This document shows, piece by piece, positions 11,415 through 12,580 of a DNA stretch of 64,000 nt. A model generated the notes under the pieces. The model searched no databases, was not told the origin of the DNA, and saw only the letters and a list, made by a program, of their open reading frames with translations. How positions within the stretch are numbered: the first letter of the stretch is position 1; each line of letters opens with the position of its first letter. Source of the DNA: Escherichia phage 212; sequence record PQ765507; one strand, written 5' to 3'. A program made the translations under genes and the position numbers.

Positions 11415-11783
11415 ATGATTGAAATTACATTAAAGCAACCTGAAGACTTCCTGAAAGTTAAAGAAACTCTGACCCGTATGGGCATCGCAAATAATAAAGA
11501 CCGTGTGTTGTACCAGAGCTGCCACATCCTCCAGAAGCAAGGTCGTTATTATATTGTTCACTTCAAAGAAATGCTGCGCATGGATGGTCGTCAGGTGGAT
11601 ATTGATGGTGAAGACTATCAGCGCCGTGATTCCATCGCCCAACTGCTTGAAGACTGGGGCTTAATCGCTATCAAAGAAGAAGAGCATAATGAATTGTTCG
11701 CAGTAACAAACAACTTTAGAGTAATTTCTTTTTCTCAGAAAAACTCATGGAAATTAATTGCTAAGTATACAATTGGAAATTAA
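11415..11783 (+). CDS. regA: translational repressor RegA
   Basis: 122 aa; recalled near-identity to T4 RegA (MIEITLK.PEDFLKVKETLTRMGIANNKD...). Confidence 0.92.
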   Translation: MIEITLKQPEDFLKVKETLTRMGIANNKDRVLYQSCHILQKQGRYYIVHFKEMLRMDGRQVDIDGEDYQRRDSIAQLLEDWGLIAIKEEEHNELFAVTNNFRVISFSQKNSWKLIAKYTIGN

Positions 11784-12580
11784 TGAATTACTTTTCGGTA
11801 TACACGGCCCTAATTAATAGGGCTGTTATTAGAAATAAAGAACCTGGAATATATTATGAATCTCATCATATATTTCCTAAATCTTTATCTAATAATAATT
11901 TAAGTTCTAATTTGGTGTATTTGACAGGAAGAGAACACTTTATTGCTCATTTACTTTTAGTAAAGATGTATGATAACCATGAATTGAAAACTGCTTTATG
12001 GGGAATGTGCAATACTAGAGAAAGTAGACCAAATTCAACCCTGTATGAATTAGCCAGGCGCAATCATGCTGAAGCTCATTCCAAAAGATGGGAAGACCCA
12101 GTATTTAGAAATAAAGTCATTTCTGGAGTAAAGGTAGCTTTTAATAAACCAGGTTCAATGGATAAGCGTAAACGCTCACTTAGAGCCGCATTCAATCGGC
12201 CCGAAGTTAAATTAAAGATGAGTACTTCCCAAAAGGAGGCCCAAAATAGACCGGATGTTAAAGAACGTGCTCAACAAAAGAGAAATGAATGGTTGTCTAA
12301 ACCTGAAAATCGGTTAAAACTATCGACGGCTGCAAAAAATCGCCGGAAGCCAACTAGTAAAATAATACGCACGGAAGAATACCGTAAAAAGAATTCTGAA
12401 TCACAAAAGCAGTTAAATTTGGAAAGAGGTCCCGGTAATCACCCCATGGCTAAAGTCGTGATGATTGATGGAATCAAGTATGATACCCAGAGACTCGCGG
12501 CAAAGGCGTTAGGAGTATCTCCTGGATTGGTTCAAAAGAGAACCGCTTCCGATAAATGGCCAACTTGGATTAAGTTTTAA
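11783..12580 (+). CDS. HNH-family homing endonuclease with NUMOD3-like repeats and C-terminal helix-turn-helix-like tail
   Basis: ESHHIFPKS...N..YLT.REH motif near N-terminus; repeated NRPEVK/NRPDVK/SKPENR units; inserted between regA and 43, start overlaps regA stop. Confidence 0.7.
   Translation: MNYFSVYTALINRAVIRNKEPGIYYESHHIFPKSLSNNNLSSNLVYLTGREHFIAHLLLVKMYDNHELKTALWGMCNTRESRPNSTLYELARRNHAEAHSKRWEDPVFRNKVISGVKVAFNKPGSMDKRKRSLRAAFNRPEVKLKMSTSQKEAQNRPDVKERAQQKRNEWLSKPENRLKLSTAAKNRRKPTSKIIRTEEYRKKNSESQKQLNLERGPGNHPMAKVVMIDGIKYDTQRLAAKALGVSPGLVQKRTASDKWPTWIKF

Follow-up and report, generated by a model that had tools for sequence, protein, structure and literature searches.

The free-standing Mob endonucleases of T4 (MobA to MobE, of which MobE is the characterized one) are defined by N-terminal homology combined with a divergent C-terminal region (PMC2790892). 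MobE has its nick site in the neighboring gene nrdB, where carriers of the endonuclease bear protective polymorphisms (PMC2790892). In the intronless homing of SegF and SegG, at T4 genes 56 and 32, the target is likewise a site in the neighboring gene, and co-conversion of flanking markers occurs (PMC2988022). We analyzed a 265-codon open reading frame (ORF) of Escherichia phage 212, located between the translational repressor gene regA and the DNA polymerase gene 43 in a 64,000-nucleotide stretch of record PQ765507 (the window, to which all positions refer). We propose, with a probability of about 0.8, that this ORF is a Mob-like free-standing HNH homing endonuclease gene situated between the regA stop codon and a conserved hairpin upstream of gene 43. 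An original prediction, made from the letters of the window, had placed a free-standing HNH homing endonuclease between these two genes, and it is supported by the family match, the identity to Mob proteins, the Pfam identification of both neighbors, and the polymorphic state of the site. The ORF was present as predicted in the ORF listing, and a paralogue check found no second copy of the gene in the window. The gene and the parts that we assign to its product are as follows.

11783 to 12580, plus strand: free-standing homing endonuclease gene (ORF; PHROG 655; junction alignments with phages MN01 and VR20; identical protein in 10 metagenome contigs)
11783 to 12010, plus strand: putative Mob-type HNH nuclease domain, amino acids (aa) 1 to 76 (invariant columns, family profile, mobD identity)
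12089 to 12343, plus strand: five tandem 17-residue helical repeats, aa 103 to 187, presumed to be a DNA-tracking linker (periodicity test, model helices)
12302 to 12577, plus strand: putative C-terminal DNA-binding module, aa 174 to 265, comprising an I-TevI-type helix-turn-helix and two helices that probably correspond to NUMOD3

We searched for relatives of the 265-aa protein and found a match to the family PHROG 655 ("homing endonuclease," E value of 9e-40), while tblastn against 50,697 phage records matched 787 of them. None of these records was more than 60% identical to the protein. The matches listed reached at most 38% identity and were annotated as homing, HNH, or Mob endonucleases, with 36 to 38% identity over aa 1 to 189; for "mobD" of phage VR26, the value was 36% over this segment (E value of 1e-18). 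Many of the "homing endonuclease" matches shared the N-terminal part only. Like T4-type Mob enzymes, the protein therefore has an N-terminal domain related by descent to that of Mob proteins, followed by a C-terminal region that diverges. It resembles the T4 Mob proteins in the shared N-terminal HNH domain (36% identity to the annotated mobD; PHROG 655), and also in being free-standing, co-oriented with its neighbors, devoid of a recognizable promoter of its own, and provided with a family-specific C-terminal region after the HNH domain. It differs from them in its I-TevI-type C-terminal module, in an SN loop in place of GG, and in a nearest relative of 37% identity among 5.8 billion proteins, and the regA/gene 43 site is not among the T4 Mob sites tabulated in PMC2988022.

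The N-terminal region was compared in an alignment of the window protein with 38 relatives drawn from the collection of 5.8 billion proteins. A module of about 75 residues is conserved at the N terminus, and Y3, E26, H28, H29, P32, N43, E51, H52, H56, L58, and L59 are invariant. The putative beta-beta-alpha core covers aa 24 to 62, with H28/H29, N43, and H52/H56; the His...Asn...His set of catalytic and metal-binding residues of the HNH superfamily is kept, and the motif aligns to EVHHVIP...GG...N of the McrA HNH domain. The family profile matched HNH domains of known structure in the PDB, namely, those of McrA (E value of 2e-4), of Cas8-HNH fusions, and of a group II intron maturase, with E values of 2e-4 to 4e-3 over all such matches, and 29 of the 39 family sequences individually matched Pfam HNH (PF01844; best E value of 3.9e-5). 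The HNH core named in the original prediction (ESHHIFPKS at aa 26 to 34, N43 within SNLVYLT, and GREH at aa 49 to 52) was recovered in this way, that is, by profile at the family level only, the protein on its own remaining below the Pfam threshold. AlphaFold (AF2) models showed with high confidence strands at residues 25 to 29 and 44 to 48 and a helix at residues 49 to 62 around the motif. In fold searches, HNH domains were among the top ranks, and first for the N-terminal domain model, without significance. We base the putative HNH assignment on the family profile and the invariant residues and not on fold comparison.

Beyond the HNH domain lies the repeat array, each unit of which begins with x-(D/K/R)-P and is modeled as a helix (AF2). 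Self-similarity of this region peaks at lags of 17 and 34 residues, and the lag-17 value was reached by 0 of 2,000 shuffles. Three NUMOD3-like repeats had been announced (NRPEVKLKMS at aa 138, NRPDVKERAQ at aa 155, and SKPENRLKLS at aa 172); they exist as repeats 3 to 5 of a five-copy array, and it is their relation to NUMOD3 that was harder to substantiate, Pfam NUMOD3 (PF07460) giving no match even at an E value of ≤10, with either the whole protein or the repeat segment. For residues 174 to 265, BLASTP gave an alignment with a Seg-like endonuclease from Serratia phage CHI14 (E value of 2e-12), and within this alignment aa 174 to 214 correspond to CHI14 residues 125 to 160, themselves a Pfam NUMOD3 match (E value of 2.8e-15); repeats 1 to 4 have no such support. 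NUMOD3 is present in the equivalent region of 17/39 relatives. The label "NUMOD3-like" is plausible for the last repeat and the helix that follows it, and it is unproven for the other repeats.

The helix-turn-helix-like tail that had been proposed for the C terminus was recognized by Pfam as I-TevI_DNA-bd (PF20987), matched above its cut-off (32.9 bits versus 27) at aa 223 to 262 (positions 12449 to 12568). Residues 199 to 262 align to the structure of the I-TevI DNA-binding domain (PDB 1i3j; E value of 0.004), which was also the best Foldseek match of the C-terminal module (probability of 0.98), and TIGR01453 gave a sub-threshold match over aa 140 to 261. The window enzyme thus shares its C-terminal DNA-binding domain (PF20987, 1i3j) with I-TevI, the GIY-YIG enzyme of the T4 td intron, and aa 174 to 265, with their sub-threshold TIGR01453 match, with Seg-like endonucleases such as that of CHI14. 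Unlike I-TevI and the Seg enzymes, it has an HNH and not a GIY-YIG catalytic domain, its gene lies outside introns with no late promoter nearby, and it shows no visible zinc finger. That HNH and GIY-YIG endonucleases can share domains is known from earlier work. I-HmuI, an intron-encoded HNH enzyme of Bacillus phage SPO1, consists of an HNH domain, helical DNA-tracking elements, and a C-terminal helix-turn-helix. The extended two-part design of the window enzyme is similar, but I-HmuI is intron encoded, and no sequence or structural match to it was obtained in profile, PDB, or fold searches. We also observed that the GC content climbs along the endonuclease gene, from 28.9% (HNH domain) through 39.2% (repeats) to 43.3% (C-terminal domain), which hints at different origins of the two gene ends and thus at a composite gene.

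We then examined what occupies the junction between regA and gene 43 in related phages. The two host genes are as follows.

11415 to 11783, plus strand: regA, translational repressor, upstream host gene (PF01818; its stop overlaps the endonuclease start)
12666 to 15380, plus strand: gene 43, family-B DNA polymerase, downstream host gene (Pfam DNA_pol_B_exo1 and DNA_pol_B)

The gene 5' of the endonuclease gene was identified as that of phage translational repressor RegA (Pfam PF01818, E value of 5.5e-60) and is itself preceded by the gp62 gene (Pfam), and the gene 43 product has 904 aa. As had been predicted, the endonuclease ATG (11783 to 11785) overlaps the regA stop codon TAA (11781 to 11783), with which it shares its A (TAATG). 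The window flanks share 99% identity with Escherichia phage vB_EcoM_VR20 (VR20) and 94 to 98% identity with ∼30 other Gaprivervirus records, and by these identities we assign the window to a T4-type phage of the genus Gaprivervirus. In T4, regA and gene 43 are separated by just 78 bp that contain no gene, in agreement with the original prediction.

Against the empty site of phage MN01, the endonuclease insert is a clean 792 bp (11784 to 12575) between the regA stop TAA and TTTAAAGC / TTTAAAGCAAAGGG. The state of the site was judged in 32 related phage records from the spans of their flank matches, eight of them being checked directly. We found nine records with an empty site, such as MN01, PSD2001, VR26, UPEC07, and pEC-M719, and 23 with a small ORF, 43.1, as in VR20, SP18, and VR7; the endonuclease gene was in 0/32 of them and, by tblastn, in none of the 50,697 phage records. 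The ORF is thus far from being fixed at this position, empty sites existing and no phage record carrying it, and the site displays a presence/absence polymorphism as do free-standing T4-type Mob genes. The comparison with insert-free relatives that had been suggested could be made, with the qualification that most close relatives hold ORF 43.1 instead of an empty site. In VR20, ORF 43.1 has 216 bp and 71 aa (L002, 1286 to 1501) and belongs to Pfam PF25760 ("Phage RB18 ORF43.1") and phrog_3826. Its boundaries are those of the endonuclease insert: it starts one base after the regA stop and ends at the same TAA in TTTAAAGC. With these shared boundaries, ORF 43.1 and the endonuclease gene are mutually exclusive alleles. 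The idea that ORF 43.1 is what remains of the endonuclease gene was rejected, as this ORF belongs to an unrelated conserved family.

VR20 carries a 591-bp ORF, VR20_051, between genes 45 and 44 (L022, 28805 to 29395) that matches phrog_314 ("homing endonuclease," E value of 9e-17) and is absent from the window (gp45/gp44 junction at ∼9840 to 9851). These two phages, although almost identical, thus differ in the endonuclease gene that they have in this replication cluster and in the junction that it occupies.

An identical 265-aa protein was encoded on 10 metagenome contigs from several sequencing projects, and the order regA, endonuclease gene, gene 43 was kept in 10/10 of them. In the nine carrier contigs that were retrieved, the gene had a single synonymous difference from the window in 798 bases (position 12135), and a tract of 950 bp (11712 to 12661), which comprises the gene and a recoded regA tail described below, was otherwise identical in all nine. 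In contrast, divergence among the flanks of the carriers reaches 2.7% on the left side and 2.0% on the right side. They form at least four haplotypes, which interleave with those of non-carriers: the window and carrier L005 are 1.0% from VR20 and 2.0% from carrier L006, and carrier L003 differs by 1.1% from PSD2001, a phage with an empty site. Since ∼15 to 20 differences would be expected in 950 bp at 1.5 to 2% divergence and none was seen, we conclude that the 950-bp block has moved recently across backgrounds. Such an invariant block is the population signature expected of homing, and it does not by itself prove that the enzyme was the driver.

The left part of this block gives a candidate target for the enzyme.

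11715 to 11783, plus strand: recoded 3' end of regA, codons 101 to 122 and stop (putative target region in non-carriers, putative immunity allele in carriers)

Codons 1 to 100 of regA differ from those of MN01 and VR20 by 5 to 7 nucleotides, with no amino acid change, whereas codons 101 to 122 have 22 to 24 nucleotide differences in 15 to 17 codons and four amino acid changes (K107S, D110N, D111S, and V115I; window 11733 to 11759, codons 107 to 115). The left breakpoint is sharp, between 11711 and 11717 at regA codon 100/101, and the right flank showed no carrier-specific changes. All carriers have the recoded tail, and the other version was found in 8/8 non-carriers examined. The tail has a GC content of 24.6% versus 36.2% in MN01, an AT shift like that of the 5' part of the endonuclease gene. 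No donor emerged: the best identity to the tail in the phage records was ≤77% (blastn in distant mode), the back-translated tail pattern had 0 matches in IMG/VR, and among the best 120 of 7,938 RegA relatives, the tail was confined to the carriers' own cluster. A VR5-like metagenomic phage (L019) with a RegA bearing S107 was considered as a lead to the donor and was rejected, as it has an unrelated DNA tail and an empty site. K107 is kept in all but 7 of the best 120 RegA relatives and adjoins F106, a residue reported to be a nucleic-acid cross-link site.

Because MobE nicks the neighboring nrdB, where its carriers have protective polymorphisms, we infer by analogy that the enzyme recognizes and cleaves a site within the last ∼70 bp of regA, which may extend to the junction, and that the recoded tail is probably both a co-conversion relic and an immunity allele. 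The original prediction had looked to the junction for the target and missed what we consider the strongest clue, the carrier-wide recoding of the last 22 regA codons. Polymorphisms in the neighboring host gene of carriers are a feature shared with MobE, in nrdB for MobE and in regA here (PMC2790892). A free-standing gene beside a conserved host gene is shared with SegF and SegG (PMC2988022), which differ in being GIY-YIG enzymes that make double-strand breaks; in the window case, co-conversion is deduced from population data only.

It is possible, though we hold it doubtful, that the gene is a mobile endonuclease with a recognition site spanning the regA-stop/TTTAAAGC junction, so that insertion itself destroys the site and the tail is a co-conversion relic without a role in immunity. 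The GC content of the tail (24.6%), close to that of the endonuclease 5' part (28.9%), fits a shared foreign, AT-rich ancestry, and the synonymous changes in the tail are as dense as those between genera. In addition, the C-terminal domain that was matched (1i3j) is of the I-TevI type, and domains of this type bind the site of insertion when the endonuclease is intron encoded. On the other hand, the whole tail is kept in every carrier although flank recombination comes as close as 5 to 15 bp to its left border, with polymorphisms at 11711 and 11699, which suggests that the tail is inseparable from the gene. A weak point of a junction site is also that the window flanks are nearest to VR20, which has ORF 43.1 and so lacks the TAA/TTTAAAGC junction, the empty-site phages being only slightly more distant.

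For the preferred reading, we propose the following sequence of events. During mixed infection with phages that lack the gene, the protein would bind their regA at its 3' end or at the regA/intergenic junction. Binding would occur through the C-terminal module and the repeats, and the HNH domain would then nick or cut nearby. Repair from the carrier genome would bring in both the gene and the recoded regA tail in place of an empty site or ORF 43.1, and carriers would be immune as a result of the change of 22 to 24 of the ∼66 bases of the presumed site. The gene, without a recognizable promoter of its own, would be translated at a low level by coupling to regA, from an initiation region closed by a hairpin.

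We also examined the expression signals around the start codon. A consensus scan found no sigma-70-like site in the 365 bp 5' of the ATG, the nearest upstream being at 11388 to 11416, before regA, and there was no T4 late-promoter consensus within 11 kb of the endonuclease gene. Seven free-standing endonuclease genes of T4 are promoterless cassettes (PMC2988022), and the window gene probably depends, as they would, on upstream transcription, here of the 45-44-62-regA unit. The start region contains one predicted element.

11765 to 11803, plus strand: predicted RNA hairpin pairing the Shine-Dalgarno sequence (GGAAA) and the AUG (81-nucleotide fold)

In the 81-nucleotide fold, this hairpin has a free energy of −18.7 kcal/mol (z score of −3.0), and 1 of 200 shuffles was as stable. 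It is absent at the MN01 empty site, and two of the tail substitutions, A to G at 11765 and T to A at 11777, contribute to it. The hairpin and the UAAUG overlap together suggest that the endonuclease may be translated just by ribosomes terminating on regA, so that its expression would be low and limited by RegA. The start-region hairpin is reminiscent of the translational control described for I-TevI (PMC2988022).

Two further sets of hairpins lie inside the gene. An 8-bp hairpin (CGGCCCUA...UAGGGCUG) at 11805 to 11825, in codons 8 to 15, is followed by a weakly U-rich stretch and was not flagged by the terminator scan. It might attenuate transcription like the internal terminator of mobE (PMC2790892). 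On the antisense strand, three terminator-like hairpins were found inside the endonuclease gene (12238 to 12386), with 1.1 expected, and they are probably due to chance.

Downstream of the endonuclease gene, two elements precede gene 43.

12582 to 12606, plus strand: conserved hairpin GGGAC-UUCG-GUCCC followed by UUUU, outside the insert (fold of −12.7 kcal/mol, z score of −3.75)
12636 to 12668, plus strand: gene 43 leader, with a 4-bp stem and an 8-nucleotide loop (AAUCACUC), followed by AUAAAGGAA and the AUG (sequence; T4 likeness)

The first hairpin is identical in the window, MN01, and VR20 and has a T4 counterpart, GGGGC-TTCG-GCCCC, at the same place. The T4 counterpart of the gene 43 leader is GAGCC-UAAUAACUC-GGGCU-AUAAACUAAGGA; the fold of the window leader alone was not significant (z score of −0.8), and the stem-loop resembles the T4 gp43 translational operator. 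The insertion leaves the hairpin, a TATAAT, and the operator-like leader hairpin intact, in a layout that mirrors that of T4. Of the terminator and gene 43 promoter/operator that had been predicted here, the hairpin with its UUUU run and the T4-like layout were found, but no terminator or sigma-70 promoter was called in the hairpin region by the consensus scan. In the metagenomic phage L019 (1365 to 1821), which has a VR5-type RegA of 120 aa, the empty regA/gene 43 site shows the same TAATTTAAAGCAA and hairpin layout; the architecture of this junction is therefore conserved across genera, and T4 has it too.

Farther away, the window and VR20 differ by further indels, at window positions 16345 to 16462, 19650 to 19981, and 25013 to 25246 (118, 332, and 234 bp, versus 5, 27, and 93 bp in VR20), and VR20 has 237 bp extra near window position ∼27160.

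Several observations weigh against an active endonuclease that spread by homing. The Pfam HNH models stayed below their cut-off on the window protein (HNH_4, 13.2 to 13.5 bits versus 22, E values of 0.07 to 0.09), and S36-N37 stands in place of the GG seen in most relatives, G37 being found in at least 90% of them; this change is one likely cause of the sub-threshold HNH_4 score. No relative with an identity between 37% and 100% was found among the 5.8 billion proteins, and a search of IMG/VR for closer relatives returned just one partial match, at 39%. No donor lineage of the endonuclease element was found among these 5.8 billion proteins either. The centroid structure of the start-region hairpin retains the outer 6-bp stem only. 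Finally, a single, very recent origin with subsequent ordinary recombination of the flanks could also account for the invariant block, and the tail could be donor DNA brought along at first acquisition and not an immunity determinant.

The GG-to-SN change in the HNH loop and the sub-threshold profile score would also fit an inactive, decaying relic or a passive cassette, moved by homologous recombination between regA and the hairpin/promoter-like block, an explanation that we consider unlikely. ORF 43.1, with its identical boundaries and stop codon, does resemble the product of a cassette exchange, and PeSL cassettes have been proposed in T4-type phages, JS98 being among the phages whose gene 43 region was reported to contain PeSL-like sequences (PMC2839356). 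However, the 265-aa frame is intact and keeps all the invariant family residues, the absence of differences in 950 bp on backgrounds diverged by 1 to 2.7% (∼15 to 20 expected) points to rapid recent spread, and an exchange at the stop codon leaves the recoded tail unexplained.

It is very unlikely that the nuclease was recruited for another function, for example to exclude co-infecting relatives by cutting their replication cluster or to modulate the expression of regA and gene 43: the gene does sit among essential replication genes, which nuclease genes commonly bracket (PMC10448857), is translationally coupled to the gene of a translational repressor, and comes with four changed RegA residues near F106, but marker exclusion arises as a side effect of ordinary homing and is here indistinguishable from it, the gene 43 leader and hairpin are unchanged, and most related phages lack the gene.

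With a Mob-like homing endonuclease as the preferred reading, what appears to be new is the regA/gene 43 site, the combination of a Mob-type HNH domain with 17-residue repeats and an I-TevI-type domain, and the lack of any relative closer than 37% among the 5.8 billion proteins; our literature search found nothing on an endonuclease at this site or in Gaprivervirus. For T4-type homing endonucleases, the locus extends the known range by one occupied site and one combination of domains, and it leaves current understanding unchallenged. The fusion of an HNH domain to an I-TevI-type module may interest engineers of modular nucleases. With three alleles at one site (empty, ORF 43.1, and endonuclease) and carriers in at least four backgrounds, the locus is a natural test case, and the sharply bounded recoded tract predicts the target to within ∼70 bp. 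We think it quite unlikely that the spread of the endonuclease imposes a variant translational repressor on its hosts. If the RegA changes were nonetheless to alter the set of repressed mRNAs, including the coupled start of the endonuclease itself, a selfish gene would be rewiring the translational control of early genes in these phages.

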